From contig JBKAGE010000034.1 in NCBI GenBank assembly GCA_046290225.1, positions 224,001-288,000 on the forward strand: 64,000 nucleotides of DNA. The letters are read 5' to 3'. A program made the translations under genes and the position numbers. Positions within the stretch are counted from its first letter, which is position 1; every line of letters begins with the position of its first letter. Positions 31,321 to 58,363 of this stretch are shown in pieces. The notes beneath the pieces were generated by a model. It searched no databases. It was not told the DNA's origin and saw only the letters and a list, made by a program, of their open reading frames with translations. The stretch comes from Bradymonadia bacterium (lineage in GTDB: Bacteria; Myxococcota_A; Bradymonadia; UBA7976; UBA1532).

Positions 31321-31474
31321 GCGGTACGGGCTCCTCGAACACGCCCGGCGAGGGACCGCTCGGGCTCACATCGCGGAGCATGGATGGAAACCCAAACGGC
31401 TGCAAGCTCCACAGCAGACTCGAGACGAGATTGCCAGGGTGCGTCTGCCGCCAGCATCCGGTAAAAGTAGAGAC

Positions 31475-32818
31475 ATGCAGCCCACAGTCCTCGTCGTCGA
31501 TGACGACACTTCGAATCTCGCCAGCCTCGTCAAGATCTTCGAACGCAAGGGATGGCGGGTCCGACCCGCCACCAACGGCAGAGAAGCCCTCGACGCCCTC
31601 AGGAGCACCCCCGTCGCCGTGGTGCTCACCGATCTCATGATGCCCGACATCAGCGGGGTCGACCTGGTCAAGCACGTCAAAGATCTCACCCCGGACATCG
31701 AGGTGATCATGATGACGGCCTACGGCACCATCGAGCGCGCCGTGGAGGCCATGCGGGCGGGGGCCTACGACTTCGTCACCAAGCCGTTTCGTCGCGCGGA
31801 GATCGAGCAGGTGGTGAGCCGGGCCCTCGAAAAGCAGGCCCTCATCGCCGAGAACCGCGCCCTGAAGGCCCAGCTCGCCCGCGTCGAACGGGCCCGGAGC
31901 ACCTGGGGCATCGTGGGCAACGCCCCAGCCCTCAGACGCGTGATGGAGGTGGTGAAGCAAGCCGCGCCCAGCTCGGCCACGGTGCTCCTCATGGGCGAGA
32001 GCGGCACGGGGAAGGAGCTCTTCGCCCGGGCCATCCACGAGCTTTCCCCGCGGGTCGATCAGCCCTTCGTCGCGGTGAACTGCGCTGCGCTGCCCGAGAC
32101 CATCATCGAGGCTGAGCTGTTCGGCTCGGAGAAAGGCGCCTTCACGGGGGCCGTGCAGACCCGCGAGGGTCGCTTCACCCGGGCCGACGGGGGCACGCTG
32201 TTCCTCGACGAGATCGGCGAGCTGTCGGCGTCGGTGCAGGTGAAGCTGTTGCGGTTCTTGCAGTCTGGCGAATTCGAACGCGTGGGCGGCACCCGGACCG
32301 AGCATGTGGATTGTCGCATCATCGCCGCCACCAACCAGGATCTCGGCAAGCTCGTCAAAGAAGGCTCGTTTCGAGAAGACCTCTACTATCGCCTCAATGT
32401 CATCGCCATCACCCTGCCGCCGCTGCGGGCCCGGCGAGAGGACATCCCCCTGCTCGCTGATCACTTTCTCCGGCTGTATGCCGAGAAGAACCGCAAGCCG
32501 ATTGAAGGCCTCACCGAGGCGGCCATGGCCCGCCTGATGGACTACTCGTGGCCAGGCAACGTGCGGGAGATCGAGAACACCCTCGAGCGCGCCGTGGTCC
32601 TCGCCCGGGGGGTGCACCTCGACGTAGACGATTTGCCGGAGAGCATCTCCGGCGCCGCGCCGAGCGCCGAGGGCCTGTTCATCTCCATGGGCACCCCCCT
32701 CGAGGAGATCGAGCGCCGCGTGATCCGCGAGACCCTGCGCTACACCGACGGCGACAAGAAGCGCGCCGCACAGCTGCTCGGCACCTCGACCCGCACCATC
32801 TACCGCAAGCTGGAGTGA
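31475..32818 (+). CDS. Sigma54-dependent response regulator (NtrC family)
   Basis: Receiver VVDDD..TDLMMP, GESGTGKE, GAFTGA, Fis-type HTH. Confidence 0.97.
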   Translation: MQPTVLVVDDDTSNLASLVKIFERKGWRVRPATNGREALDALRSTPVAVVLTDLMMPDISGVDLVKHVKDLTPDIEVIMMTAYGTIERAVEAMRAGAYDFVTKPFRRAEIEQVVSRALEKQALIAENRALKAQLARVERARSTWGIVGNAPALRRVMEVVKQAAPSSATVLLMGESGTGKELFARAIHELSPRVDQPFVAVNCAALPETIIEAELFGSEKGAFTGAVQTREGRFTRADGGTLFLDEIGELSASVQVKLLRFLQSGEFERVGGTRTEHVDCRIIAATNQDLGKLVKEGSFREDLYYRLNVIAITLPPLRARREDIPLLADHFLRLYAEKNRKPIEGLTEAAMARLMDYSWPGNVREIENTLERAVVLARGVHLDVDDLPESISGAAPSAEGLFISMGTPLEEIERRVIRETLRYTDGDKKRAAQLLGTSTRTIYRKLE

Positions 32819-33116: not shown

Positions 33117-34130
33117 ATGGACAGTTTCATCAAACGCTACTTCTGGATCGTCAACGTGGCGGTCCTCGGGGTCATCGCCTATCTCGGCGCCCGGGTGGCC
33201 AACAATCTGATCGCCGGCGAGATCGTCGGGCTCGCAACGAGCCCTGCGGTGGAGGGCCCCGAAAAAGAGGGCAAGAACGCCAAGAGCAACAAGAAGTCCG
33301 AGCGCAGAGGCCTCGGCTGGGCCGAGCGCATCATGGGGCGCAACCTCTTCAACGCCAACCCGCCTGAAGATCCCGAAGACGGCCCCAAAGATCCCAACGA
33401 CAAGCCAGAAGAGGGCGACAAGCCCGTGGTGGCGAGCGGCGAGATGCCCACCAGCCTCGACGCCTGCGAGAAGAGCGAAGAGCGCATCGTGCTCCTGGCC
33501 ACCATGGTGGCCGAGCCCCAAGAGCTCTCCATGGCCGTCGTGCAGGACAACTCCAACGACCGAATCCTCAAGCCGGGCATGTCCGCCGGTGAAGACGCCG
33601 CGGTGAAGGTGGCCCGCATCAACCGGTCGTGGCTGGTGCTGCAGAACAGCAAGGGCACCTACGAGTGCGTCGCCGTGGGCGGCAAGAAGCAGGCGAAGAA
33701 GAAGAAGGGCCGCGGCGTCGACCGCACGAAGCCCAAGAAGGGCAACCGCGGGGGCAGCCTCACCAAGGCCGACCGCGACGCCATCAAGAACGGCGTGCAG
33801 AAGACAGGCAAGAACGAGTACCAGATCGACCGCGAGATGCTGAACGAGCAGCTCGCCGATCTGAACAAGCTCGCCCGCCAGGCCCGGGTCATCCCCCACT
33901 ACCGCGACGGTCAAGCCCAGGGCTACAAGCTCGTGGGCGTGCGCCCCGGCAGCCTCTACAGCCACCTGGGAGTGCGCAGCGGCGACATCCTCAAAGGCGT
34001 CAACGGCGAAGAGGTCAACAGCCCGAACAAGGCCCTCGAACTCTTCGAGAAGCTCAAGAGCAGCGACAACGTGAGCCTTGAGGTGGAGCGTCGCGGCAAG
34101 CCTGTGGCCCTGGAGTACAACATCAAATGA
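33117..34130 (+). CDS. gspC: Type II secretion protein C (TM, HR and PDZ domains)
   Basis: N-terminal TM, RNLFN, C-terminal PDZ ARVIPHY..GYKL..GVRSGDIL..VNG; first gene of the gsp operon. Confidence 0.92.
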   Translation: MDSFIKRYFWIVNVAVLGVIAYLGARVANNLIAGEIVGLATSPAVEGPEKEGKNAKSNKKSERRGLGWAERIMGRNLFNANPPEDPEDGPKDPNDKPEEGDKPVVASGEMPTSLDACEKSEERIVLLATMVAEPQELSMAVVQDNSNDRILKPGMSAGEDAAVKVARINRSWLVLQNSKGTYECVAVGGKKQAKKKKGRGVDRTKPKKGNRGGSLTKADRDAIKNGVQKTGKNEYQIDREMLNEQLADLNKLARQARVIPHYRDGQAQGYKLVGVRPGSLYSHLGVRSGDILKGVNGEEVNSPNKALELFEKLKSSDNVSLEVERRGKPVALEYNIK

Positions 34131-34879
34131 GACTCCACTGGCTATCATCCATGGCCATCGGCGTGGCCCTCCTGGCGCCCACCGCGGGTGCGGCGAAGTC
34201 GAGCCTTGCCGAGGATTTCATCCAGAAGTGCAAGGCGCTCCCTCCAAACGGCCAGGTCACCCTCGACATCGTCGACGAGCGCCTGCTCACGGTGGGCAAA
34301 GTCGTCGCATGCCTCACGGGCAAGACGGTGACCTTCGGCGACCCGCTCAAGAGCCTCAAGAAAGAGCGCCTGACCATGCTGGGCACAGCGCGATACACCG
34401 CGCCTGAGGTGCTCGAGGCCTTCGTCAACCTAGTCGAACTCAAAGGCTTCACTGTCAAACAACAAGGCAACTTCGTGCACATCGCTCGAGGGCCGCGGGG
34501 CGTACCCTGCGAAGCTCAGACCAAGATGCCCATCGAGCAGGGCGTGCGCGAGGTGGGCGCCAATCACTATCAGCTTGAGCGCAAGATGCTCGATGAGCAG
34601 TTCGCCGACCTGACTCAGCTCGCGCGTCAGGCACGGGTGATCCCCCACTACCGTGACGGCCGGCCTCAGGGCTACAAACTCATAGGCATACGGGCCAAGA
34701 GCCTCTACAGCCATATCGGCCTCCGCAGCGGGGATCTGATCAAGCGCATCAACGGCACTGCGATCAACTCTCCCAACGACGCCTTGTCGCTCTTCGAGAA
34801 GCTCAAGAGCAGCGACACGGTGAGCCTCGAGGTGGAGCGTGCGGGCCAGCCTGTGATGCTCGAGTACACCATCAAATGA
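34127..34879 (+). CDS. Secreted chimeric protein: GspD N0-like domain plus GspC PDZ domain
   Basis: Signal peptide; N-half aligns with N0 of the downstream GspD; C-terminal 115 aa about two-thirds identical (hand count) to the upstream GspC; ATGA overlaps at both ends. Confidence 0.85.
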   Translation: MRLHWLSSMAIGVALLAPTAGAAKSSLAEDFIQKCKALPPNGQVTLDIVDERLLTVGKVVACLTGKTVTFGDPLKSLKKERLTMLGTARYTAPEVLEAFVNLVELKGFTVKQQGNFVHIARGPRGVPCEAQTKMPIEQGVREVGANHYQLERKMLDEQFADLTQLARQARVIPHYRDGRPQGYKLIGIRAKSLYSHIGLRSGDLIKRINGTAINSPNDALSLFEKLKSSDTVSLEVERAGQPVMLEYTIK

Positions 34880-39587: not shown

Positions 39588-40814
39588 ATGGCGACTTACG
39601 ATTTCAAAGGTCTCGACAAGCGAGGCAAAGAGGTCAGCGGGGTCCGCGAGGCCGAGAACGAGAAGGCCCTGCGGCAGCTGCTCAAGAAGGAAGGCATCTT
39701 CCTCACCAAGGTGGGCAAGGGCGGCAAGAAGGGCGGCAGCTTCCTCTCGGCGGAGGTCGACTTCGCCCAGATGTTCGAGAAGATCAACGGCCAGGACATC
39801 GCCATCCTGACCCGGCAGCTCGCCACCCTGCTCAAGGCCAGCATCCCCGTCGTCGACGCCCTCGGGGCCTGCGTCGAGCAGGTGGAGAAGCCCAAGCTGC
39901 GCAAGGTGGTCAGCCAGCTGCGCCAGGAGGTGAACGAAGGCACCAGCCTCGCCACCGCCCTCGAACAGCACCCCGACATCTTCAGCCCCATCTTCCCCAA
40001 CATGGTGAAGTCGGGCGAAGCCAGCGGCACCCTCGACGACGTGCTCATGCGCCTCGCGGAGTTCACCGAAGCCCAGGTGAAGCTCAACCAGAAGGTCAAG
40101 AGCGCGATGACCTATCCGGTCATCATGGTGGGCATCGGCGCGTTGATCCTCGCGGGTATGTTCGCCTACGTGATCCCGCAGATCACGCAGATCTTCGAAG
40201 ACACGGGGCAGGAGCTGCCCTGGATCACGAACGCCCTCATCAGCGTCAGCAACGGCTTCCGGTCATACTGGTGGGTGGGCCTGCTGATGGCCTTTGGCGG
40301 CATGACCATGTTCCGCCGCTGGAAGGCCACCAAGAACGGCGCCCTCAAATGGGACGAGATCAAGCTCAAGCTCCCAGTCTTCGGGCAGCTCACCTTGATG
40401 GTGGCCATCGGACGCTTCACCAAGACTCTGGGCACCCTGCTGCGCTCCGGCGTGCCATTGCTCACCGCCCTGGACATCACCAAGAACGTGCTGGGCAACC
40501 GGGTGCTCATCGAGATCATCAGCGACGCCCAGGTGGCCGTGAAAGAAGGCTCCAGCCTCTCGATCACGCTCAAAAAGAGCGGGCGCTTCCCGCCCATCGT
40601 CACCAACATGATCGCCATCGGTGAGCGCTCCGGCGCTCTGGAAGACATGCTCAACGTCGTGGCTGAAGCCTACGAGAGCCAGGTCGAGGGGCGCATCGCC
40701 GCCCTCACCAGCCTGCTCGAGCCGGTCATGATCGTGGGCATGGGCGTCACCATCGGCATCATCGTCTTTGCGGTGCTCATGCCGATCCTGCAGCTCAACG
40801 AGTTCGTCAGTTGA
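39588..40814 (+). CDS. gspF: Type II secretion inner-membrane platform protein
   Basis: TRQLATLL, GEASGTL, AMTYP, GERSGAL, LLEP. Confidence 0.97.
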   Translation: MATYDFKGLDKRGKEVSGVREAENEKALRQLLKKEGIFLTKVGKGGKKGGSFLSAEVDFAQMFEKINGQDIAILTRQLATLLKASIPVVDALGACVEQVEKPKLRKVVSQLRQEVNEGTSLATALEQHPDIFSPIFPNMVKSGEASGTLDDVLMRLAEFTEAQVKLNQKVKSAMTYPVIMVGIGALILAGMFAYVIPQITQIFEDTGQELPWITNALISVSNGFRSYWWVGLLMAFGGMTMFRRWKATKNGALKWDEIKLKLPVFGQLTLMVAIGRFTKTLGTLLRSGVPLLTALDITKNVLGNRVLIEIISDAQVAVKEGSSLSITLKKSGRFPPIVTNMIAIGERSGALEDMLNVVAEAYESQVEGRIAALTSLLEPVMIVGMGVTIGIIVFAVLMPILQLNEFVS

Positions 40815-41929
40815 AGTGGCTCAACCTCCTCGTCGATCGGCGGGTGGCCCTCCTCGTGGGTGGGTCCGCTCTGCTGCTCGACTTGCTCTCCAAAGAGCTG
40901 GTGACCACCCTGCTGCCCGAGGGCAGCCAGGTCACCGCCGGGCCGCTGATGATTCAGCACGCCCGGAACCCGGGCGTGGCCCTGGGCACCTTTGGTGGGC
41001 TCTCCGAGGGGGTGCGCATGTCGCTCGTGGTGGTGGGCATGCTGGTGGCGCTCTTCGTGGCCCTGCCCTGGCTCGCCCGACGTCTGCGGGCGGGGGCGCT
41101 GAAGCAGACCGCCGTGGCCCTGGTGATCACCGGCGCCATCGGCAACTTCGCCGATCGGCTGCGCTACGGCTCAGTCATCGACTTCATCGGTCTCGATCCG
41201 GCGCTGGGTATCCCTTCTCCGGTGTTCAACCTCGCCGACGTAGCCATCGTCGTCGGCGCGGCGCTGTTGCTGTGGGGCCCCAAGCGCACGGGGCCTGGCC
41301 GCGGCCAGCCGCTGCCTCAGGATTCGTGGCCGGGCATTTCGGAGAGCAATCCCGGTACTCAAGACTCTTCCTGGACGATCATCGCCGTGCGCCGCGCCCC
41401 CACCAAAGAGGTGGTGGCCTCGTCGATCAAGCTGCTGGGCGTGCTGCTCGCGGTCAGCGTGGCCCTCGGCGCCCCCAAGGCTCAGGCGCAGGGCGACGCT
41501 CAGGCAGGCCAGGTGGCCTCGATGAACGCCCAGATGCGCATGATCCGGCAGGCCGTGCAGGCCTACCACCTGCAGCACAAGCGTCACCCCGAGCAGCTCG
41601 AGGCCCTCGCCTCGCCGCCGGAGGGTCAACCATTTCTGAAAGCCCAGCACCTGATCGACCCGTGGGGCATCCCCTACACGTACCAGGTCCGTGGCGAAGC
41701 CCTCGACATCATCAGCGCCGGACACGATGGCAAGCTCGGCTCCGACGACGACGTGATGCTCGTGGGCAACACCTTGAAGCACCAGGGCCCCATCGACTTC
41801 AGCCCGCGCCCCGCCCCCAAGAAGAGCAACACCCTGCCCCTGGCCCTCATCGGGGGCTTCACCGTGGTGTCTCTCGTGGCCTGGCGCATGCTGCTGGCGA
41901 AGAAAGCGAAGGCCGATGCCCTGGCTTGA
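40811..41929 (+). CDS. lspA: Lipoprotein signal peptidase II fused in frame to a GspG-type pseudopilin domain with a C-terminal TM
   Basis: LspA motifs D..SK, NPGVALG, GAIGNFADRL, VIDF, FNLAD; then DPWGIPYTY..ISAGHDGKLGSDDD; TTG start overlaps the gspF stop. Confidence 0.85.
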   Translation: MKWLNLLVDRRVALLVGGSALLLDLLSKELVTTLLPEGSQVTAGPLMIQHARNPGVALGTFGGLSEGVRMSLVVVGMLVALFVALPWLARRLRAGALKQTAVALVITGAIGNFADRLRYGSVIDFIGLDPALGIPSPVFNLADVAIVVGAALLLWGPKRTGPGRGQPLPQDSWPGISESNPGTQDSSWTIIAVRRAPTKEVVASSIKLLGVLLAVSVALGAPKAQAQGDAQAGQVASMNAQMRMIRQAVQAYHLQHKRHPEQLEALASPPEGQPFLKAQHLIDPWGIPYTYQVRGEALDIISAGHDGKLGSDDDVMLVGNTLKHQGPIDFSPRPAPKKSNTLPLALIGGFTVVSLVAWRMLLAKKAKADALA

Positions 41930-41962
41930 TCATCTCTGCTCGGCGCGCCACCTCTCAGAGGC

Positions 41963-42026
41963 GGCGATTCTGGCAACTGAACCCCGCCAAACTGACACAT
42001 GCCCTCGCATTCACGTCAATTTGGCA
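41963..42026. promoter_or_regulatory. Second cluster of YGYCA-N3-TGRCA sites, upstream of gspG
   Basis: CGCCAaacTGACA (41985-41997) and CGTCAattTGGCA (42014-42026) resemble the sites upstream of gspC. Confidence 0.45.
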
Positions 42027-42135
42027 AAGCGAACCATCTGATATCAAAAGAGGAATCAACATCCTCTCCCAAGCGATTGAGTCCAGTGAGAACGGGGCGG
42101 AGCACCTCACATCACTGGGCCAGAAGGAGGTAACC

Positions 42136-42612
42136 ATGAACTTCAATCGGTCCCGTTGGGCACGTCTTCTCCCCCAGCGCACTGCTGCGCGTCTGCAGGC
42201 TCGTCAGGGCGAGGCCCCCATGGCCGCCCGTCGTCGCCAGAAGGGTATGACCCTCCTGGAGATCATGATCGTGATCACCCTCATCGGGGTGGTCATGGCG
42301 GTGGTGGTGACCAACGTCATCGGCGCCGGCGACAACGCCAAGATCTCCGCGGCGAAGACCAAGATGCAGAGCATCAAGCAGCAGGTGGACATGTACTACA
42401 CGATGTTCGACGAGTACCCGGACAACCTCCAGGCCCTCGTCAAGCCCCCCGCTGGTCGCAAGCCCCTCATGAACAAGAACGGGCTCAAGGACCCCTGGGG
42501 CAAGAAGTTCAACTACAGCAACCGCGATGGCGACATCCAGCTCAGCAGCTCGGGCCCCGACCGCAAGGAAGGCACCCAGGATGACATCAAGTTCGGCGGT
42601 GAGGAGCAATAA
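42136..42612 (+). CDS. gspG: Major pseudopilin GspG (copy 1)
   Basis: AAGGAGGT RBS; QKG|MTLLEIMIVI; KDPWGKKFNY..SSGPDRKEGTQDDI. Confidence 0.93.
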   Translation: MNFNRSRWARLLPQRTAARLQARQGEAPMAARRRQKGMTLLEIMIVITLIGVVMAVVVTNVIGAGDNAKISAAKTKMQSIKQQVDMYYTMFDEYPDNLQALVKPPAGRKPLMNKNGLKDPWGKKFNYSNRDGDIQLSSSGPDRKEGTQDDIKFGGEEQ

Positions 42613-42703: not shown

Positions 42704-43123
42704 ATGGGCAGGTTCAACACGCAGAGGCGCCTCGACGCGAGGAAGCGGCATCCCAAGGGATACAGCTTGATCGAGATCCTGGTGGTCATCTCACTCATCG
42801 GTGTGGTGATGGCCATCACAGTGACCAACGTGATCTCGCTGATCGATGAGGCGAACATCAAGGCCACAAAGGTCAAAATCAAGCAGGTGGCTGACCAGGT
42901 GGTCCAACACCGGGTCATTCACGACGAGTACCCCGGGCGCCTGGAAGACAAGGTGCGCCGCCCGAACGGGCGATCCGGGCCGATGAAGGCCGACGCGCTC
43001 AAGGACGCCTGGAAAAACCCCTGGGCATACAAGAGCGGCGAGCGTGACTTTGATTTGAGCAGCGCCGGGGTCGATGAAGACCACGGTACTGAAGACGACA
43101 TTCACCACGACGAGGACACCTGA
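42704..43123 (+). CDS. gspG: GspG paralogue (copy 2)
   Basis: PKG|YSLIEILVVI; KDAWKNPWAY..SAGVDEDHGTEDDI. Confidence 0.88.
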   Translation: MGRFNTQRRLDARKRHPKGYSLIEILVVISLIGVVMAITVTNVISLIDEANIKATKVKIKQVADQVVQHRVIHDEYPGRLEDKVRRPNGRSGPMKADALKDAWKNPWAYKSGERDFDLSSAGVDEDHGTEDDIHHDEDT

Positions 43124-49065: not shown

Positions 49066-50802
49066 ATGTCGAACCTGCTGAAAGCGTTCCTGAAGTACAC
49101 CGGCTACACGGTCTTCTTCCTGGCAGCCTTCGGGCTGTTCTTCTACCTGACCCTCCCCATGGACGAGGTGAAGTCGTACCTGGTACGCGCCGCCTCCGAC
49201 AATCTGAACCTCGAGCTGGAGATCGACGATCTACAGCTCGCGGGCATCTCCACGGTGAAGGCCTCGGGGGTGGTGCTCACCCCCCGCCCCACGCCGGAAG
49301 AGCTCGCGGAGATGGAAGCGGCCATCAAGGCCCGCAAGGAGGCCAAGGCCCGCATTAAGGCACAAGAAGAGGCCGGCGACGCACCGGAGCCTGCAGCGCC
49401 GGCCCCAGCGCCCGCTGTCCCCCCTGATCCGGCAGCCCTCGTTGACCCCGCCGTGCTTGCTGATCCAGCGGCGATGGCGGATCCGGCGGCACTGGCCGAT
49501 CCGGCGGCGCTGGCCGATCCGGCAGCCCTTGCAGATCCTGCAGCCCCGCCTCCCCCTGGCCCCACCCGGGCCCGGATGAAGAAGGGCAAAGCCGCTCGGG
49601 GCAAGAAGGCCAAGAAGGCCAAGAAGATCGAGCTGCCCCCTCTCCCAGCGGGCCCACAGCCCCTGGAGATCACCGAGCTCGAGGTGAACCTTGAGGCCAT
49701 GGCGGCCATCAAGGGAGAGTTTCGGGGCTCGCTGTCTTCAGAGCTGATGGACGGCACCCTGGCGGGCACCTTCGATCATGGCGCCGAAGCGCTGGTCGTA
49801 GATGTCGAAGCCGACAGCCTTGATCTCAGCCAGCTCACGTTTCTCAAGGGCATGCTGCCCATCCCTGTGAAGGGGGTGCTCAGCCTCACCGCCGAAGGTG
49901 ACGTGGCCCGGAACACGAAGGGTGCCTTCCGCCTCGCCACCATCAACGGCAACGCAGAGCTGGACGCGGTCCGCATCAGCGCGGGCCCGGGGATGATCCC
50001 CACGCAGAAGATGGGGAACGTCGAGATCCCCGTGGTGCGCATCGATCGCCTCGGGGGCACCATCGATTTCAGCCAGAAGAAGGCGACGTTCAAGAACGTG
50101 ACCTTCTCGGGCAAGGACATCGAAGGTGAGATCACCGGCTACATCACACTGCACGACAAGATGGAGCGATGGCGCCCGAACTTCCACGTCAGCTTCAAGT
50201 TCTCGAAGGAGTTCCTGGCGAACAACGCCGCGGTGAAGTTCATCATCGAGTCTCGCGACGTGAAGCGGGCGGTGAACACCGACGGCTTCGTGGGCTACAT
50301 GCTCCGTGGCGGCTGGTCGGCGAAGAACTTCCAGCCCCGCCGCGAGAGCCCCTTCAAGAAGAAGTCCCGAGCCAAGAAGCGCGGCGCCGACAAGAAGAAG
50401 AACAAGTCTGCCTCGAAGCGGAAGAACCGCCGCAACAGCAAGAAAGGCACGTCGCTCGCGAACAAAGACAAAGATGATCGCAAGCGCCGCAACCGCCGCC
50501 GCGTCTCTGCCCGCCCACCCAAGGATGACACGACGGCTTCTCGTCGCCCCAAGCCCCTCGGCCGCCCTCAACCTGCAGATCCTGATACTGAAGACGAGGA
50601 GGACGAGGAAGACGAAGAGGATGAAGAGGACGAAGAGGACGAGCCCGACGAGCCCGATACTGAAGAGCCCACCACTGACGAGCCCAACGGGGACGAGCCC
50701 ACTGAGGGCAGTCCGAACGACGATCTGCCTCAGGACGGCGCCGGTGGGGGTGGCCCTGATGACAACGGCGGCGGGCCGGGGCCCAACGACGACTTGCCTT
50801 GA
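49066..50802 (+). CDS. gspN: GspN-like protein with low-complexity insertions
   Basis: N-terminal TM ..FYLTLP, beta-rich core; last gene of the operon. Confidence 0.75.
   Translation: MSNLLKAFLKYTGYTVFFLAAFGLFFYLTLPMDEVKSYLVRAASDNLNLELEIDDLQLAGISTVKASGVVLTPRPTPEELAEMEAAIKARKEAKARIKAQEEAGDAPEPAAPAPAPAVPPDPAALVDPAVLADPAAMADPAALADPAALADPAALADPAAPPPPGPTRARMKKGKAARGKKAKKAKKIELPPLPAGPQPLEITELEVNLEAMAAIKGEFRGSLSSELMDGTLAGTFDHGAEALVVDVEADSLDLSQLTFLKGMLPIPVKGVLSLTAEGDVARNTKGAFRLATINGNAELDAVRISAGPGMIPTQKMGNVEIPVVRIDRLGGTIDFSQKKATFKNVTFSGKDIEGEITGYITLHDKMERWRPNFHVSFKFSKEFLANNAAVKFIIESRDVKRAVNTDGFVGYMLRGGWSAKNFQPRRESPFKKKSRAKKRGADKKKNKSASKRKNRRNSKKGTSLANKDKDDRKRRNRRRVSARPPKDDTTASRRPKPLGRPQPADPDTEDEEDEEDEEDEEDEEDEPDEPDTEEPTTDEPNGDEPTEGSPNDDLPQDGAGGGGPDDNGGGPGPNDDLP
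49426..49551 (+). repeat. 18-bp coding tandem repeat (7 copies, DPAALA-like)
   Basis: DPAALV DPAVLA DPAAMA DPAALA DPAALA DPAALA DPAAPP. Confidence 0.9.
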
Positions 50803-50864: not shown

Positions 50865-53582
50865 TCAGAAGTTGATATTATCCCGAAAGTTCGGATCGAG
50901 CTGCTGGCCCACCTCGAACCTGATCTCCCGATCGTAAATCCGGCGGTACAACGCGAGGTACTGAAGCACTCGCTTGGTGTACCTGCGCGTCTCCGGATAC
51001 GGGATCTCTTCGACGAACTCGTCCATGTTGATGTGGCCCTTCGCCTTGAGCCACGCTGCCACCCGGTGGGGCCCGGCGTTGTAGCTGGCGATGGCCAGGG
51101 GCAGCTGCCCGTTGAACTTGGTGAGCAGCTGGTTGAAGTACCAGCCACCGAGCTCCAGGGCCACCTCGGGCTCGAGCAACATGGCCGGGCCGAAATTGCG
51201 CATGCCCATGCGATCCGCCACCAGACGCCCCGTGAAGGGCATCACCTGCATCAGGCCTCTGGCACCAGCGTGACTGATCGCCAGGGGGTTGTAGGCCGAC
51301 TCCACGGTCATCAGGGACCACAGGAAGTACGGATCGAGGCCGTAGCGGGCGGCGGTGTGCTCCACGATGGGGCGGAACGCCTGACGGAACATGTTGGCCC
51401 AGGCGGGGTTGTGCTCCTCTGACTCTGGAAGCCCCACCAGGGTGCCCTTCTTGTTGAAGTAGCGTCGGGCGTAGTAGGCGTCACCAATGCACTGGATATA
51501 GGCCGAGCGCATCATCCCGTAGATGGGGCTGCTCAGCAGCTTGGCGAGGGCCTGGCCCCTGCGGGCATCCGCAGCGGGTCGGGGTGTATCGCTGAGATCA
51601 CGACCCCACTCACCGAGGGTGACGTCCCGTCGGCGATCAGCATAGGGCTCTGGACGCCAGGCCCAGCGCTTGGCGCTGCGTCGCTTGCGGCGATACTTGC
51701 GAAAGTCTGCCAGCTCGTCGCTCACCCGGTGCAGCGCCCCTCTGGCGGCCCAGAGCTCCCCCGTGAGCACCAGCTGGTGGGCCCGTTGCAAGTCGGGCAA
51801 CACCCCCCCGTACCGACGAATCAGCCGCTCGAAGGCCGTGAGGCCCTCTTCCGTGGGCAGATGGGTCGAGCCTGGGGGCGGGGCCTCCACGAGCACAGGG
51901 GCGAGCAGCGGGCCATCGTCGATCTCGGGCTGTGAGGTTGCCCGTGCCTGAGCGAGGGTCTGTTGCTGGCAATCGTCGTCATCTTCGCGGCACGTGGGCG
52001 CTGCCGGGATGTCGTCACTCGTACCGCCGCCATCAGGATCGACGTCGCCTGTGGCAAGGGGGCCTTCTGCGGGGCTCATGCCCAGCTCGGCGAGGCGGGC
52101 CCGTGACTGATAGGCATAGTACGACACGGGGGTGGACGCGATGACCTCGCGGTAGGCCTCCGCCGCGGTGTCCACCTCACCGGCCTGGGCCATGGCCCGG
52201 CCATACCAGTAAGTGAACTTTTCCGGCCAGCGGGTGCCCGATCGCAGCTGCGCGAAGGTGTCGGCGGCTTCGAGATACTCACCGAGCTGGAAGCTGCTCC
52301 AGGCCCTGAGCCAGCGGGTCCCGCCGCTGAACTCTCCCCCTCGGCGGCTCAGCAAGGCGAAGTGCTCTCTGGCCTTCATGTACTCGGCCGCGTTGAAGTA
52401 GAGCCAGGCCACGTCTTCGAGCAGCTCGCTCGGCAGGCGCTCGGGGTTGCCCGCAGAGGCCTTGAGGGCAGCCACAGCCTCTTTGGTCTTGCCCATCTTC
52501 TCGAGCACATAGCTCTGCCAGCGCAGCGACTGTCGACGGTGACCCTCGATGGTGGCGCTCTGCCCCCAGGCCTTGAAGGCCGCCAGGGCGTCATCGTAGC
52601 GCTCCATCTGGTAGAGCGTTCGGGCCATCTGATAGCGGGCCTTGCGCTTAAGGGCGGACTTGGCCTTGGGGTGCTCAGCGACCTCGCCGAGCACCTTCAA
52701 GGCCCGCTCGAAGAACTTCTGGCGTCGAAGCTTGTAGCCCACCTCGTACAGCGTGTCTGGGCTCGCCGCGGGCACCGAGATGCCCTGGGCCTCGAGGGCC
52801 TCAAGCGATCGACGGGCCACGAGGGCCAGCGGATCGCCTGGGTGCTGACGCACGACCTGACTGAGCACTCCGGCCACCTTGCTCAGCCGACCGCGGGCGC
52901 GCTCTCCTTCGGCGATGGCCATGAGCGCAGCGGCCTGATGGGGGTACTCCGGGTAAGTGTCGAGCAGGCTTCGCAGCCGACGGATCCCTTCGCGGTGCTT
53001 CCCTTGGCCCAGCAGACAGTCAGCGACGCGAAAGCGCGCCCGGTGGGCCCACTGGGAGGCCGAGTTCACCTTGATCAGCTTCTCAAAGAGCTTCTCTGCG
53101 GCGCCATATCGCCCCTGGTGAAATGTGCTCTCGGCCTCGAAGAAGCGCAAGCGATCGGCAAAGGCGGGTTTGAGCGCAGCAGCCGCCTTGAGATCAGCCA
53201 CAGCGAGGGCATATCGCCCGAGGCGGTACCGCGCCATGCCCCGAACAGCCCTCAGCAACGCGTAGTCGGCGCTCCCCTTCTTCACCCCTGCCAGCGCCTG
53301 AGTGGCCTTCTGCTCTGCTGTCAGGGGCTCACCTGCGGAGCGACCCACCTCGGCCACCAGCGGGCTGAATTTGGGGTACTTCACCACCCCCGGCCACTGT
53401 GCGTCGGTGATCTGGCCTTCGAGCGCGGGCCGGGCAGACTGTCGTTGATTGGGCGCCTTGCGGGCAGGCGACGTAGAGTCTCCATCGGCATGAGCCGGTA
53501 CGGACTGGGTCGACCATGCCGTGATCACGAGGATCAGGGAGATGCTCAAACGGGCGAGATCGTGGGGTGTGCGGATCACCAA
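50865..53582 (-). CDS. Soluble lytic transglycosylase (Slt70-like, TPR plus SLT domain)
   Basis: Signal peptide, TPRs, VESAYNP..SHAGARGLMQVMP, SYNAGP, ETRRYTKRV. Confidence 0.93.
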   Translation of the reverse strand: MVIRTPHDLARLSISLILVITAWSTQSVPAHADGDSTSPARKAPNQRQSARPALEGQITDAQWPGVVKYPKFSPLVAEVGRSAGEPLTAEQKATQALAGVKKGSADYALLRAVRGMARYRLGRYALAVADLKAAAALKPAFADRLRFFEAESTFHQGRYGAAEKLFEKLIKVNSASQWAHRARFRVADCLLGQGKHREGIRRLRSLLDTYPEYPHQAAALMAIAEGERARGRLSKVAGVLSQVVRQHPGDPLALVARRSLEALEAQGISVPAASPDTLYEVGYKLRRQKFFERALKVLGEVAEHPKAKSALKRKARYQMARTLYQMERYDDALAAFKAWGQSATIEGHRRQSLRWQSYVLEKMGKTKEAVAALKASAGNPERLPSELLEDVAWLYFNAAEYMKAREHFALLSRRGGEFSGGTRWLRAWSSFQLGEYLEAADTFAQLRSGTRWPEKFTYWYGRAMAQAGEVDTAAEAYREVIASTPVSYYAYQSRARLAELGMSPAEGPLATGDVDPDGGGTSDDIPAAPTCREDDDDCQQQTLAQARATSQPEIDDGPLLAPVLVEAPPPGSTHLPTEEGLTAFERLIRRYGGVLPDLQRAHQLVLTGELWAARGALHRVSDELADFRKYRRKRRSAKRWAWRPEPYADRRRDVTLGEWGRDLSDTPRPAADARRGQALAKLLSSPIYGMMRSAYIQCIGDAYYARRYFNKKGTLVGLPESEEHNPAWANMFRQAFRPIVEHTAARYGLDPYFLWSLMTVESAYNPLAISHAGARGLMQVMPFTGRLVADRMGMRNFGPAMLLEPEVALELGGWYFNQLLTKFNGQLPLAIASYNAGPHRVAAWLKAKGHINMDEFVEEIPYPETRRYTKRVLQYLALYRRIYDREIRFEVGQQLDPNFRDNINF

Positions 53583-53637
53583 ATCTCCTCAGAGTGTGCC
53601 GCTGGTCACAGGTAGAAAAGCGCGGCATCTCTCTGAA

Positions 53638-53814
53638 TCAGATCAGATCATCGCCCTCGTCGTCCAGTCCAGCGCCGATCAAGTCGCTCTGGCCGGCCTT
53701 GATGCCCGCCTTTCGGCCAAAGATGAAGCCGATGATGCCGCCCACGAGCAGGATGAACGGGATGTAGACAATGTGCGTCGGGGTCGGGGTACCAAAGAAC
53801 TCCACTTCACCCAT
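53638..53814 (-). CDS. Small membrane protein, 58 aa (below the ORF-track cutoff)
   Basis: MGEVEFFGTPTPTHIVYIPFILLVGGIIGFIFGRKAG...DDEGDDLI; TGATG overlap with the ccmD stop; typical codon bias. Confidence 0.75.
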   Translation of the reverse strand: MGEVEFFGTPTPTHIVYIPFILLVGGIIGFIFGRKAGIKAGQSDLIGAGLDDEGDDLI

Positions 53815-54203
53815 CACACACCTCCTTCATCGTCGAGCGCGTTGAGGCGCTTGCGCAAATCATTCAGCTCCTGGGCGGTGCTCTGCTGCTTGCTCCAGGT
53901 GCGCCAGATGAAGCCGAAGACCAGAATCCAGATGGCGGCGTAGGCGATCCAGAGGTTGCGGTACTTCATGTCTTCGTTCGAAGACGTGCCCTTGAAGCTC
54001 GCAGGCTTCGTGTAGCCATCGCCGGCGGCCTGCCCCGAGGCAGAACCCTCCGCAGAACCCTCTGACGTGGCTGCAGCAGCGGGCGTATCCTGGGCCCACG
54101 CCTGCCCCACGGGGGCCATCAGCCCCAGGGCCATGGTGAGGACGATGCCTCGGAGAGAGAGGCTCCACAGGTGGGAAGACTGTGCGCGACGCTTGATCAT
54201 CAA
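53814..54203 (-). CDS. ccmD: CcmD-family protein with N-terminal extension
   Basis: LWIAYAAIWILVFGFIW followed by a coiled coil; directly after ccmC. Confidence 0.7.
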   Translation of the reverse strand: MMIKRRAQSSHLWSLSLRGIVLTMALGLMAPVGQAWAQDTPAAAATSEGSAEGSASGQAAGDGYTKPASFKGTSSNEDMKYRNLWIAYAAIWILVFGFIWRTWSKQQSTAQELNDLRKRLNALDDEGGV

Positions 54204-54886
54204 AACACCCCAGCGCGGGCCAGACGGCGCCGCATGGCCTTTATCATGCGCTCATCGACGAGGGCCTTATACCTCAAGCGCAGCAGCAATCCGAACAAGA
54301 GCAACAGGGCCGGCAGCGCCACCCCGTAGAGGGTCATACGCATGTCGGGGCTGATGCCCCCGCCGCCGTTGATGTTGAGCACCTGGGGGTGGTTCCCCCG
54401 CCACATCTTCACCGCGAAGTGCACGAAGAAGATGTTCGGCGCCCCGAAGACCCCGAGCACGGAAGCGAAACGCCGCACGCCGTCACCGGAGCCGCCGAAG
54501 GTGCGGAGCATCCAGTAGGCGGCGAAGATGACCACCATGAGGGCCATGCTGGTGAGGCGGGGCTCCCACTTCCAGTACACCCCCCACACCGGGCGCGCCC
54601 AGAGTGGGCCCGTCACCAACACGATGAGGCCGAAGAGCAGGCCCACCTCTGCAGAGGCCAGAGCGAAGGCGTCGGCCCGGGTGCTGCGCTTCCACAGGTA
54701 GCCCAGGCTGCCTCCGGCGCACAGGATGAAGCCCAGGTAGCACAGCCACGCGCTGCTCACATGGAAGTAGAAGATCTTCTGAATCACCCCCATCGAAGTC
54801 TCCATGGGGGCGACGTTGAACACGAAGTACACCGCCGTGGCAACGGCCAGAGCGCACAGCGCCGTGAGGGCCGGGAATATCTTCAC
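54200..54886 (-). CDS. ccmC: Heme exporter protein C
   Basis: IFYFHVSSAW, GPLWARPVWGVYWKWEPRLT, HP. Confidence 0.93.
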   Translation of the reverse strand: MKIFPALTALCALAVATAVYFVFNVAPMETSMGVIQKIFYFHVSSAWLCYLGFILCAGGSLGYLWKRSTRADAFALASAEVGLLFGLIVLVTGPLWARPVWGVYWKWEPRLTSMALMVVIFAAYWMLRTFGGSGDGVRRFASVLGVFGAPNIFFVHFAVKMWRGNHPQVLNINGGGGISPDMRMTLYGVALPALLLLFGLLLRLRYKALVDERMIKAMRRRLARAGVF

Positions 54887-55566
54887 TCGATCACCATCCT
54901 CTCGAACAGATAGAGACCGCCGACACCATAGAGGGTGTCGAAGGCGAGGTTCAGCTTCAGCCAGGGGTACGGATCGCTCTCGATGGTGGTGCCCAGCAGG
55001 GCCCCAGTGCCGGCGACCCCCGCAATGAGAACCGGAGAAACCAGGGGGAACACCACCATGGGCAACAACACCTCGGCGAAGCGGGCATTGGTGGCCATCA
55101 CCGCCAGGGGCGTACCCACCACAGCGAAGCCCAGGGCGCCGAGGAGAATCTGTAGCGACAACAAGGCCGCGTGCTCAGTCAGATCGACCTGGAGCAGCAC
55201 CGCGAGCAGTGGGACCACGATGATCATGACGATGAGGATGATCACCAGATTGGTGAGCATCTTCGCCAACAAGATCGCCCCCCGCTCTGCGGGAGACAGG
55301 ATCAGCGCCGTGAAGGCGCCGTCGAGTTGCTCCCGGGCGAAGGTACGCCCCATACCCAGGGTGCCCACGAAGAGCACATTGGCCCAGAGCACACCGGGGA
55401 ACACCTTGGCGTTGGTCTGCGGATCAGACGCGAAGCCAAAGGCGAAGACCAAGGTCATGACGATGCTGAAGAGGAACATCATCGCCAGGGTCTGCTTCGA
55501 TCGCAGCTCGGTGCGCAGATCTTTGGCGAGCACCAGCAACACGGTGGCGGTATAGCCCACGTTCAC
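54883..55566 (-). CDS. ccmB: Heme exporter protein B
   Basis: KDLRTELR, PGVLW, FARE..DG, LLP..FPL..PVLI. Confidence 0.93.
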   Translation of the reverse strand: MNVGYTATVLLVLAKDLRTELRSKQTLAMMFLFSIVMTLVFAFGFASDPQTNAKVFPGVLWANVLFVGTLGMGRTFAREQLDGAFTALILSPAERGAILLAKMLTNLVIILIVMIIVVPLLAVLLQVDLTEHAALLSLQILLGALGFAVVGTPLAVMATNARFAEVLLPMVVFPLVSPVLIAGVAGTGALLGTTIESDPYPWLKLNLAFDTLYGVGGLYLFERMVIE

Positions 55567-55569
55567 CTC

Positions 55570-56352
55570 TCAGGCCTCCCCTGCAGCAGGCCGAAGGCGG
55601 CCTCTCTTGCGACGAGGCGGCGGGGTGTCGATGCAGCGATGGTAGAGCGCCGTGAGCCCTTCTTCGCCGATGGGGCCGTGATGGACCACGCGACCCTTCC
55701 GCAAGATCAGAGCCCGCGTTGCCAAGCTCTCCGTCGCCACCAGATCGTGACTGCACAGCGCGAGGATGGCCCCAGCCTCGGCTTCGCCCCTGAGCAGCTC
55801 GATGGCGGCCTTCACGCCGTCTCGATCGAGGCCGGTGAAGGGCTCGTCCAGCAGCAACAGGCGTGGGCGATGCATGAGGGCCCTGGCGATGGAGAGCCGC
55901 TGGGCCATGCCGCGACTGAACCCCGCCACTGGGCGATCCATGTCCAGGGCGAGGCCCACACGCTCCAGCCACTCGGGCACGGCCTTCTCGAGATCGGAGA
56001 CGCCACAGATTCGACCGAAGAACACCAGGTTCTCCCGGGCGGTGAGATCCCGATAGAGCATGGTCTGGTGACCCACGTACCCGATGGCCGCTCGAAGATG
56101 AGGCGGGGTGATGCCGGAGATGGCTTCGTCGCCAAAGACGATCTCGCCTTCAGAGGGCCGCGCTCGGGTGGACAGCAGGCTCATCAGGGTGGACTTCCCC
56201 GCGCCGTTGGGCCCCAGGAGCGCCGTGGTCACCCCAGCAGGCAGCTCCGCGGAGACATCGACGAGGGCATAGTGCTCGTCGAACGCCTTGCTCACCCTGG
56301 AGATCGCCACCTGTTCAAAGGCGCCGCTGCGCCCTGGCCTCTGTCCGCTCAC
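55570..56352 (-). CDS. ccmA: Heme ABC exporter ATP-binding protein
   Basis: GPNGAGKST, FSRGMAQR, LLLDEPFTGLD; upstream of ccmB. Confidence 0.9.
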   Translation of the reverse strand: MSGQRPGRSGAFEQVAISRVSKAFDEHYALVDVSAELPAGVTTALLGPNGAGKSTLMSLLSTRARPSEGEIVFGDEAISGITPPHLRAAIGYVGHQTMLYRDLTARENLVFFGRICGVSDLEKAVPEWLERVGLALDMDRPVAGFSRGMAQRLSIARALMHRPRLLLLDEPFTGLDRDGVKAAIELLRGEAEAGAILALCSHDLVATESLATRALILRKGRVVHHGPIGEEGLTALYHRCIDTPPPRRKRGRLRPAAGEA

Positions 56353-57698
56353 CGGCCATCCAGGCGATCGAGGGCCTTGTAGAGCGACACGAGCCGGGCG
56401 GTGATGGCCTCCTGCTCACGCTCGAAGCGCGCCTGGGAGATGCGCCCCTTCTGCGCCGCCTTGCGCATGCGGGCCAGGGCCCGGAGCAGGCGATCGCGCT
56501 CAGTCTCCAGGTGGGCCCGGGACAGCCGCGTGGTGTCGCCGAGATCTTTGGGGCGCTGGAAGCCAAAGAGCACCAGCAAGGCCAGGCCCCCGATGCTGCT
56601 GAGCATGAGGGTGACGTTGAGGTAGTCCTTCGTGGGCACCCCGGTGATGGCGAACTGGAAGGGCTGATCCGCCTCGAGCATGGCCTCCTGGGCGGAGAGC
56701 TCCCAGAAGCGCTTGCCGCTGCCCATGGTCACGGGGTTGATGGCGCCGATGCCCCGCGTGTCGAGGCCCAGAGGCACGCTGGTCCGCTGACGGGCCTTCT
56801 TGCCCTCCCACTTGTCCCGCCACACGAGGGCGTAGCCGCCAACGGTGCGGATGGGGGCGGACATGGACCATTCGAAGGTGTCGGCCATGCCATAGGGCAC
56901 GGTGTAGTACATGACGAACTGAGCGGCGCCGTCTTCCCCGGGCATCACCGCCCCCTTGAACCAGATCGAGGTGCCCAGGGCTTCGATCATGCGGGCAGGA
57001 GGCTTGTTGCCGTCAGGTCCGTGGACCTCAGGGTGCTTGGCCCCCTCGGGCACCACCAGACGCAGGCCGCCGGCGGGCAGGTTGCCCAGGTTGACCACCT
57101 TGCGCCCACCGTTCATGAGGCTCACGCGGTGGGAGATGAGCAGAGCGTCTTCGAGAGGCTTCACCTCGACGAAGGCGTGCCGCAAGAACAGCTTGGAGGT
57201 GTCGTCGGTGACCTCGGTGAGGGTGACCTCGAGGGCGCCTCCCTCCCCCGCCTGAGGCAGGAGTTTGGTCATGAACGGGAACCGCACCCCGTTGTAGTCC
57301 ACCTGCACCTTGTAGCTGATGAACTGCTGCACCTTGGGGTTGGTGGGGATCCCCTGGAAGGTGACCTTCCCACCCTCTTTGGTGGTGTCGAAGTAGTCTT
57401 TGACCTTGCTGCCCTGGGCCAGAATGGTCACGGAGACCGGCAAGCCTGGGGGCGCCGGCACACGCTGCCCCTCCACATCGATGTAGGCCTCGACGGTGAG
57501 AGGCTGACGCTTCATGGCCCGCAAGAAAGGCGGCAGACCGCTGGCATCCGTCGCCACGTCTTCGATTTTGGGGGTGGGATACTGAGCCGCAGCGGTCCCC
57601 GCCAGCAATGCGCTGAAGCCGAGGGCTGCGACGCACACGCCCAGAGCGCTGCGCAGTCGAGGAGAGCTGAGCCTGGTCTGGAGGCTGAAGATGTTCAT
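56349..57698 (-). CDS. Exported hypothetical protein with C-terminal TM and short helical tail (ccm cluster)
   Basis: Signal peptide, beta-rich body, TM, ERDRLLRALA..GRIS..FEREQ tail; ATGA overlap with the upstream gene. Confidence 0.75.
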   Translation of the reverse strand: MNIFSLQTRLSSPRLRSALGVCVAALGFSALLAGTAAAQYPTPKIEDVATDASGLPPFLRAMKRQPLTVEAYIDVEGQRVPAPPGLPVSVTILAQGSKVKDYFDTTKEGGKVTFQGIPTNPKVQQFISYKVQVDYNGVRFPFMTKLLPQAGEGGALEVTLTEVTDDTSKLFLRHAFVEVKPLEDALLISHRVSLMNGGRKVVNLGNLPAGGLRLVVPEGAKHPEVHGPDGNKPPARMIEALGTSIWFKGAVMPGEDGAAQFVMYYTVPYGMADTFEWSMSAPIRTVGGYALVWRDKWEGKKARQRTSVPLGLDTRGIGAINPVTMGSGKRFWELSAQEAMLEADQPFQFAITGVPTKDYLNVTLMLSSIGGLALLVLFGFQRPKDLGDTTRLSRAHLETERDRLLRALARMRKAAQKGRISQARFEREQEAITARLVSLYKALDRLDGR

Positions 57699-58363
57699 GC
57701 GTTGGCCTCCACGGACTGAAGATCGGTCCCACACCGCTTGCAGAACCGGGCACCGGGTCGATTCTCGGTGCCACAGGCTGCACACGAGATCACCTGAGGC
57801 GGCTCGCTCGGTGCACCACACAGATCACAGAACTCACCCTCGACATCTCGCTCACCCCCACACGACCAGCACGTCTTCGTCTGGGCTTGGGGCACGACGG
57901 GCTCTTCGGCCTGAGGCTCGGCCGCCGCCGTCTCAGGCTCAGGTGCCTTCTTCTCGAGTTTGACCTGCTCCGGGGCCGCCTCGGGCGCTTCTGCCTTCTG
58001 CTTCCCCTTGAGCCGGGTGTTCACGTCCGCGTCGATGCGATCCTGGTAGGCCTCACTGGCGGCGTCGATGCGCTCATAGACGGCCATCGCCTCCCGCTCG
58101 TATTTGGCCTTGAGCTGCTTGAGATCCCGGGCGCCGATCTTGTTGAGGGCCGCCTCGAACTCCAGCTCCTTGAGCTCGTCCACGAGGCGATCTCGCTGGG
58201 TGAGCAGCGCCATGGACTCGTCTTCCACCGCCTGCAGATCGTCGACGGTGACCCGCGTGGTGTCGAGGAGCGGCTTGATGGCCTGGTAGATCAGGTACAC
58301 CGTCACCAGCCCCGAGAGCAGGGCGAGCACCTGAAAGCTGAAGAGAGACTGCAGGATAGTCAA
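57695..58363 (-). CDS. Membrane-anchored double zinc-ribbon protein (CcmI-N-like helical region)
   Basis: TM, LKELEFE..KI..DL..LKAKY, four CxxC motifs. Confidence 0.8.
   Translation of the reverse strand: MTILQSLFSFQVLALLSGLVTVYLIYQAIKPLLDTTRVTVDDLQAVEDESMALLTQRDRLVDELKELEFEAALNKIGARDLKQLKAKYEREAMAVYERIDAASEAYQDRIDADVNTRLKGKQKAEAPEAAPEQVKLEKKAPEPETAAAEPQAEEPVVPQAQTKTCWSCGGERDVEGEFCDLCGAPSEPPQVISCAACGTENRPGARFCKRCGTDLQSVEANA

Follow-up and report, generated by a model that had tools for sequence, protein, structure and literature searches.

A signal peptidase II paralogue coupled to gspF in the type II secretion operon of one Myxococcota family, joined to a GspG-like head in a single lineage

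We analysed a stretch of 64,000 nucleotides from a Bradymonadia bacterium (GenBank assembly GCA_046290225.1, contig JBKAGE010000034.1, positions 224,001 to 288,000; hereafter the window), in whose type II secretion system (T2SS) operon a 372-codon open reading frame (ORF) joins a signal peptidase II (LspA) domain to a globular domain like that of the major pseudopilin GspG. Both domains belong to known families; what appears new is the placement of a distinct LspA clade in the gsp operon, directly after gspF. This placement is shared with relatives of the window organism. The fusion, on present data restricted to one lineage, has the look of a local accident. We favour, with room for doubt, an explanation in which the ORF encodes an accessory LspA that is coexpressed with the T2SS and carries a pilin head as a passenger. 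Searching the open-access literature at the level of listings and abstracts, we found no description of lspA within a gsp operon.

The ORF is uninterrupted and coupled to the gspF stop, as described in an earlier reading of this DNA made without database searches (the sequence-only reading); its TTG start overlaps that stop by 4 nucleotides (nt). Pfam recognises Peptidase_A8 at amino acids (aa) 20-155 (E = 1e-27) and T2SSG at aa 230-318 (E = 7e-14). The N-terminal part scores 97.5 bits against the Peptidase_A8 profile (cut-off 25) and 73.7 bits against TIGR00077, marginally under the cut-off of 73.95; six of the seven orthologues scanned pass that cut-off narrowly, and the housekeeping copy of the genome scores 126.8. 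With Foldseek, the LspA part of a low-confidence model retrieved the LspA structures 6RYP, 5DIR and 6RYO (E 2e-7 to 1e-6; template modelling score by target 0.71-0.76); an atlas search returned one LspA structure row and no usable feature match. All 14 conserved residues given for Staphylococcus aureus LspA in PMC6952399 are present in the window protein, including both catalytic aspartates, so the earlier description of a complete LspA holds. The same 14 are found in 16 of 17 subfamily sequences, the remaining one differing at one site. The domain shares with known LspA enzymes its fold of four helices and a beta-cradle, the Asp pair and the other 12 residues, and differs from them in belonging to a divergent paralogue clade within the gsp operon and in having a long tail and a C-terminal pilin head.

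To place this gene among its relatives, we obtained the gspF locus from 24 of the 28 genomes of this Myxococcota family. In six of them, from four genera (the window genome, G002, G012, G017, G020 and G024), lspA lies directly after gspF; in the other 18, gspG does. The five relatives encode a stand-alone LspA of 175-180 aa with the identical 4-nt gspF overlap, followed by an ordinary gspG, whose start overlaps the lspA stop in two cases. The lspA-in-gsp synteny raised by the sequence-only reading is therefore found in five other genomes. All six carriers have a second lspA elsewhere, and the separate housekeeping lspA that the same reading considered exists in the window genome, where it overlaps lgt on contig C72. 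The window genome has two lgt genes (contigs C3 and C72), so that both early steps of lipoprotein maturation are duplicated. A gspF-coupled lspA upstream of gspG, beside a second lspA, is found in all six members with a readable locus, about ten further members being known from databases only. Beyond the family, we sampled its class and phylum, with some genomes incomplete: among 113 class genomes the paralogue turned up in 6, and among 401 phylum genomes in 5, every one of them in this family. A metagenome scan with the LspA alignment returned 26 loci at 33-48% identity and no close orthologue of the operon LspA, and a scan of genome contigs returned generic LspAs among the matches listed.

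Phylogenetic analysis places the 17 paralogue sequences in one clade apart from 34 other LspAs (Shimodaira-Hasegawa-like approximate likelihood ratio test [SH-aLRT] support 97), in a quick tree that carries a long-branch warning on the sister of this clade. On the gspF tree the distribution of carriers requires two changes, a number as low as this occurring in 0 of 500 shuffles; it can be read as one gain with a loss in G005, or as two gains. The branch uniting the carriers has support of 92/87 and is not starred. The ratio of nonsynonymous to synonymous substitution rates (dN/dS) is 0.07 for the closest paralogue pair and 0.26-0.46 for other pairs among relatives. Together with the conserved residues and the LspA fold, these comparisons mark the operon LspA as a maintained and probably active paralogue whose position in the T2SS operon is fixed.

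The fusion is distributed quite differently from the placement. A profile search of 8000 candidates of 96-448 aa identified 13 subfamily proteins (224-280 bits; next best 116), of which the window protein alone contains T2SSG; the other 12, of 159-256 aa, have no GspG domain. A full-length search gave three matches, one of them fused: the window protein itself, P0003 (217 aa) and P0004 (256 aa). The last two are the closest relatives, 72-74% identical over the LspA part, and both stop without a pilin head. These searches scored part of their candidates, and fusions longer than 651 aa lie outside the length range covered. A GspF 91% identical to that of the window is encoded on a contig equal in length to the one encoding P0004, so the corresponding locus of a near relative probably contains an unfused lspA. 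Starting from the C-terminal half, the best non-self match among 1200 scored 82 bits, with no close relative, and none of the 149 non-self matches listed has an LspA profile. Among the 67 of these scanned with Pfam, T2SSG occurs alone, repeated, or with beta-lactamase, transglutaminase, HEAT or DUF domains, which argues that the head is a promiscuous module. The C-terminal half was found in 0 of 108 candidates of a metagenome scan and 0 of 1203 candidates of a word-based search. Hence the Peptidase_A8 plus T2SSG architecture stands for the window protein and was found in no other lineage (1 of 13, 1 of 3 and 0 of 149 in the respective searches). The second of two options in the sequence-only reading, a recent fusion of two accessory genes, fits these data for one lineage.

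The segment between the two domains had been taken for a linker of about 45 aa. We find that it is the conserved LspA tail of the closest relatives: it aligns in frame with P0003 and P0004 to about aa 197 (scores 61 and 58; 0 of 2000 shuffles each). The weak codon bias that had been reported for it is confirmed, with codon adaptation of 0.39-0.47; 10 reference genes reach 0.63-0.74, and the C-terminal half 0.68-0.71. Confidence in the model (predicted local distance difference test, pLDDT) falls below 50 at aa 159-198. The 43-codon linker stays open in 1909 of 5000 shuffles, the chance level at this GC content. The C-terminal end of P0003 maps to the intergenic DNA upstream of gspG1, a fit reached by 0 of 400 block shuffles with k=8 and by 2 of 400 with either k=6 or k=10; the segment was first spotted by eye and then retested over all windows. 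Because the P0003 end maps there, it leaves no room for a GspG-like gene, and the tails of P0003 and P0004 seem to enter this same stretch of intergenic DNA in different frames without crossing a GspG-like gene. The intergenic region also contains two similar TGGCA-containing words about 52 nt apart (41960-42032), the second seemingly conserved in the hosts of P0003 and P0004. They are a possible regulator site, and a gene for a sigma-54 response regulator lies upstream of the operon (31439-32818). We found no sigma-70 promoter at 41150-42200.

The C-terminal half is a recognisable pseudopilin head without a pseudopilin N-terminus. Its T2SSG score is 52.2 bits (cut-off 21), the core is modelled with pLDDT of 93-98, and the top Foldseek rows are all major pseudopilins (E 1e-3 to 3e-2, probability 1.0). 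TIGR01710 gives the head 42.5 bits against a cut-off of 88.85, and the normal gspG1 also falls short at 74.6, making this model a poor judge in the clade. As the sequence-only reading had it, the GspG domain is without a class III prepilin motif: the site (Gly-1, hydrophobic +1, Glu+5) is absent from the N-terminus of the GspG-like half, and the ORF product has no N_methyl match, whereas gspG1, gspG2, gspH, gspI and gspJ each match N_methyl. The segment once called signal-like proves to align with the prepilin helix of the two gspG genes of the same operon, as a decayed leader that has lost Gly-1 and, in register, Glu5, and that has no TIGR02532 match. The head resembles GspG, PulG, EpsG and XcpT by profile and predicted fold, and differs from them in the missing prepilin site and Glu5, in an Ala-x-Ala (AxA) motif after the first helix, and in an added C-terminal membrane helix. 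The AxA is one of nine matches to the pattern in aa 211-236 and lies within an insertion relative to GspG1; by pattern it is a candidate signal peptidase I site, predicted to be cut after aa 226.

Several features point to the origin of this half. It is 30-33% identical to the GspG proteins of its own genome and of relatives. Two deletions, one of 3 residues and one of 4-5, are common to this half and both gspG products of the window genome, and occur in 0 of 25 rows from relatives. It also groups with gspG1 and gspG2 (SH-aLRT 90), on a very long branch of its own (3.7). The deletions common only to these three domains indicate that the GspG-like half is a local duplicate. Its C-terminal end is a hydrophobic peak (aa 344-362) with a basic end, consistent with the membrane helix and basic tail described earlier, and in contigs from two independent marine sequencing runs this helix, the stop and the intergenic region are joined at 98-99% identity. 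We considered whether the helix is a reused sorting tag and rejected the idea, since no similar tail was found in the genome; nor does the 372-aa protein contain a cysteine or match TIGR03901, as a MYXO-CTERM tag would require.

Translation of the head appears to depend on the fusion. In-frame GTG codons lie at 41387, 41411 and 41414, as the sequence-only reading had pointed out; the separate translation it proposed from them has no supporting ribosome-binding site, by what is a weak test. Pairing with the anti-Shine-Dalgarno sequence, for which we used a generic sequence because the assembly yielded no 16S 3' end, is -3.0, +1.9 and -1.7 kcal/mol at the three codons. For 11 of 14 other operon genes it is -5.6 to -13.5, and the weak three (-1.5 to -4.6) are gspD, gspF and gspK. 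The internal GTGs being without ribosome-binding sites, the fusion is probably the only route by which the head is produced. According to PMC6952399, LspA has four helices, with its active site facing outward and its C-terminus in the cytoplasm; the tail would therefore be cytoplasmic, helix 5 (aa 201-219) would run outward, the head would be periplasmic and helix 6 (aa 344-362) would return. Helices 5 and 6 have basic residues on their cytoplasmic sides. The full-length structure model is poor (predicted template modelling score 0.35, mean pLDDT 55) and says nothing on domain contacts. Pseudopilin polymerisation needs the prepilin site, and a head without that site and with a C-terminal anchor would not polymerise.

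We therefore propose the following sequence of events. An LspA paralogue, catalytically intact by its residues, would have been inserted between gspF and gspG in the ancestor of one family branch. Translated in step with gspF, it may raise lipoprotein-maturing capacity when the T2SS is made; the placement is observed, and the purpose is our interpretation. In the window lineage gspG was tandemly duplicated and the first copy presumably lost its prepilin site, although the order of these events is conjectural. The long LspA tail, whose stop position varies, could then have captured that copy in frame, consistent with the local origin of the head and its narrow range. The product is predicted to cross the inner membrane with six helices and to expose the pilin head to the periplasm between the last two, and signal peptidase I would cut it after aa 226 into a working LspA and a C-anchored head barred from the pseudopilus. 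The peptidase would be the conserved part and the pilin head a tolerated passenger.

Several observations weigh against this explanation. G005 nests among the carriers without the gene, and 18 of the 24 T2SS loci do without lspA. For pairs with the window genome dN/dS is 0.46-0.70, in distant comparisons where the ratio is unreliable, a range that gives no evidence of selection on this copy. A simple lipobox scan of eight operon regions found no shared lipoprotein candidate, which leaves coexpression for T2SS cargo a conjecture. P0003 and P0004 are known as proteins only; P0004 alone gave no significant mapping to the intergenic motif (110-160 of 400 shuffles), though with k=6 and k=10 its fit coincides with that of P0003; and a first, cruder tail-mapping test was not significant at the protein level, with nucleotide fits of 4/200 and 14/200. 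Finally, the head keeps its core motifs, folds confidently, has host-like codon use and has no ribosome-binding site of its own. It looks maintained and fusion-dependent, as a selected fusion would also make it.

Among the alternatives, the one that survives best makes the paralogue a spare LspA, or a buffer against inhibitors, that has no T2SS-specific substrates and landed by chance in a well-expressed operon. We regard this as a real possibility while leaning against it, an assessment that stands independent of those for the other readings. At least two LspA matches are present in 19 of the 28 family genomes, at varied places; most T2SS loci are without the gene, and no lipoprotein gene was acquired with it. 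PMC8689077 describes four lspA paralogues in Myxococcus xanthus, one linked to lgt. The extra copies there lie in the lgt operon or the myxovirescin cluster, and lspA3 and lspA4 of myxobacteria are regarded as such spare or buffering copies, for myxovirescin. The window genome resembles M. xanthus in having several copies, one of them lgt-linked, and differs in that its extra copy is coupled to gspF. What speaks against a mere spare is that position and gspF coupling are kept in all six carriers across four genera, with the stop-start overlap with gspG in two, and that the genomes searched yielded no member of the clade elsewhere.

A stronger proposal is that the dedicated LspA matures a subset of prolipoproteins for surface display by the T2SS, bypassing the general pathway, and that the added head fixes the enzyme to the secretion platform as an early stage of physical integration; we think this unlikely. 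Somewhat less probable again is the related reading in which the fusion itself was selected, its pilin head tying the peptidase to GspG or to the T2SS assembly platform and so bringing lipoprotein maturation to the secretion site. Its topology would be self-consistent, with basic residues cytoplasmic at helices 5 and 6; the head is intact, well folded and without a separate start signal; and the gene keeps all its active-site residues and is T2SS-coupled in six genomes. Nevertheless, the fusion occurs in one lineage whose closest relatives are unfused, an open linker is expected by chance in 38% of shuffles, the candidate signal peptidase I site would part the halves, and T2SSG heads occur in many unrelated architectures. 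The tethering of the enzyme to the pseudopilus by its GspG domain, put first by the sequence-only reading, is not supported, 12 of 13 subfamily members having no such domain and the five readable loci encoding a stand-alone lspA and then gspG.

Alternatively, two genes might share one frame, with the head made mainly from its own GTG, secreted and C-anchored, and the long product minor. The in-frame GTGs do precede a basic-hydrophobic-AxA segment, and codon adaptation recovers at about 41380. Set against this are the weak pairing at all three GTGs and the lack of a stop before aa 372, such that LspA is made as a fusion in any case; we consider the proposal improbable. The least credible alternative is an assembly or consensus error by which two genes lost an intervening stop or acquired a frameshift: no contig from the four sequencing runs examined in detail, out of seven that contained 5-10% of words, covers the junction (41264-41550), and the protein is on record as a cluster of one member from a single contig, but an artefact is unlikely given that the exact 372-aa protein is recorded from both NCBI and Logan sources, that there are 0 frame-change candidates in 78.8 kb of this genome (246 ORFs of relatives compared), and that two other lineages keep the tail in the LspA frame. 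The proteins neighbouring the ORF on Logan contigs of 6.8 and 11.8 kb are 100% identical to those of this operon, which suggests a second assembly of the same strain with the same frame. One run contig spans 41024-41252 with zero differences from the window; RNA contigs overlap gspF and gspG1 only and are uninformative for the ORF.

The operon as a whole has the order gspC, a second gspC-like gene, gspD, E, F, the ORF, G1, G2, H, I, J, K, L, M and N, where gspN is named by position and has no Pfam match. Most relatives have one gspG. The second gspC-like gene (34127-34879) is another chimera, 38% identical to residues 171-261 of the GspD and 63% identical to residues 208-337 of the GspC of the same operon, and a full-length match was found in the window genome only, among 113. 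Its make-up is what would be expected at the new junction of a tandem duplication across gspC-gspD, and the operon of this lineage is prone to local duplication and shuffling. The chimera could act as a soluble periplasmic mimic of GspC and GspD. Independent, fast-drifting tandem duplicates with altered prepilin motifs and long branches lie just after gspG at two other loci, L156 (G009) and L159 (G023). The gene in the gspN position (49066-50802, plus strand) contains a DPAALA-type repeat in internal tandem and ends in a long, acidic stretch of low complexity. Convergent to the operon (50865-57821, minus strand) are a large lytic-transglycosylase-like protein with repeats and then a cluster like that for cytochrome c maturation (ccm), labelled by eye, in the same order in relatives.

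Table 1. Features of the T2SS operon region, in window positions (all on the plus strand).
Feature	Position	Strand	Basis or remark
gspF	39588..40814	+	Pfam T2SSF; stop overlaps TTG start of the ORF, translational coupling
372-aa ORF: LspA paralogue, tail, GspG-like head, C-terminal membrane helix	40811..41929	+	
LspA (signal peptidase II) domain, aa 1-157	40811..41281	+	Pfam A8; 6RYO/5DIR by sequence and fold; 14/14 residues
Catalytic Asp124	41180..41182	+	Invariant in 17/17 subfamily sequences
Catalytic Asp143	41237..41239	+	Invariant in 17/17 subfamily sequences
Cytoplasmic LspA tail ("linker")	41282..41401	+	In frame with unfused P0003 and P0004; disordered in model
Decayed prepilin leader and hydrophobic alpha1-N helix, predicted fifth membrane helix	41390..41473	+	Aligned to N-terminal helix of own GspG1/GspG2
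Candidate signal peptidase I site Ala-x-Ala, cut after aa 226	41480..41491	+	(-3,-1) pattern scan
GspG-like globular pseudopilin head	41498..41764	+	Pfam T2SSG; fold model
C-terminal membrane helix and basic tail	41840..41929	+	Hydrophobic peak; read contigs
Intergenic motif upstream of gspG1, target of P0003 C-terminal end	42009..42032	+	Block shuffles
gspG1, normal major pseudopilin	42136..42612	+	Prepilin motif; strong ribosome-binding site
gspG2, second prepilin-bearing gspG duplicate	42704..43123	+	43% to gspG1
Second private chimera: signal peptide, GspD N0, GspC PDZ	34127..34879	+	Coupled to both neighbours

Inner-membrane peptidases tied to T2SS function are known in GspO/PilD, the myxosortase MrtX and rhombosortase, which are enzymes of other families than LspA. 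As the sequence-only reading observed, the operon has no gspO; the two Peptidase_A24 matches of the genome are on other contigs. An MrtX-like gene was detected in 27 of the 28 family genomes, including that of the window, below the cut-off in every case, and in carriers and non-carriers alike. Since the genome has separate A24 peptidases and an MrtX-like gene, the LspA paralogue replaces neither, and we rejected it as a substitute prepilin peptidase and as a substitute myxosortase. Each MrtX-like match is split in two, with about 700 nt between the pieces, and the frames, of 335-730 aa, are longer than the 238-position model, an expanded myxosortase form. All 28 family genomes encode MYXO-CTERM proteins, as against none of 14 controls, which supports a Myxococcota host.

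T2SS export of lipidated proteins in myxobacteria is documented in PMC11980579, and the routing of lipoproteins to the T2SS as opposed to the general outer-membrane pathway is only partly understood. An LspA clade hard-wired in the T2SS operon would allow one to test directly if lipoprotein maturation can be specific to a pathway, although only in heterologous systems, as none of the hosts is in culture. The fusion itself matters less, as a snapshot of how tandem duplication may make chimeric T2SS genes, twice in one operon.

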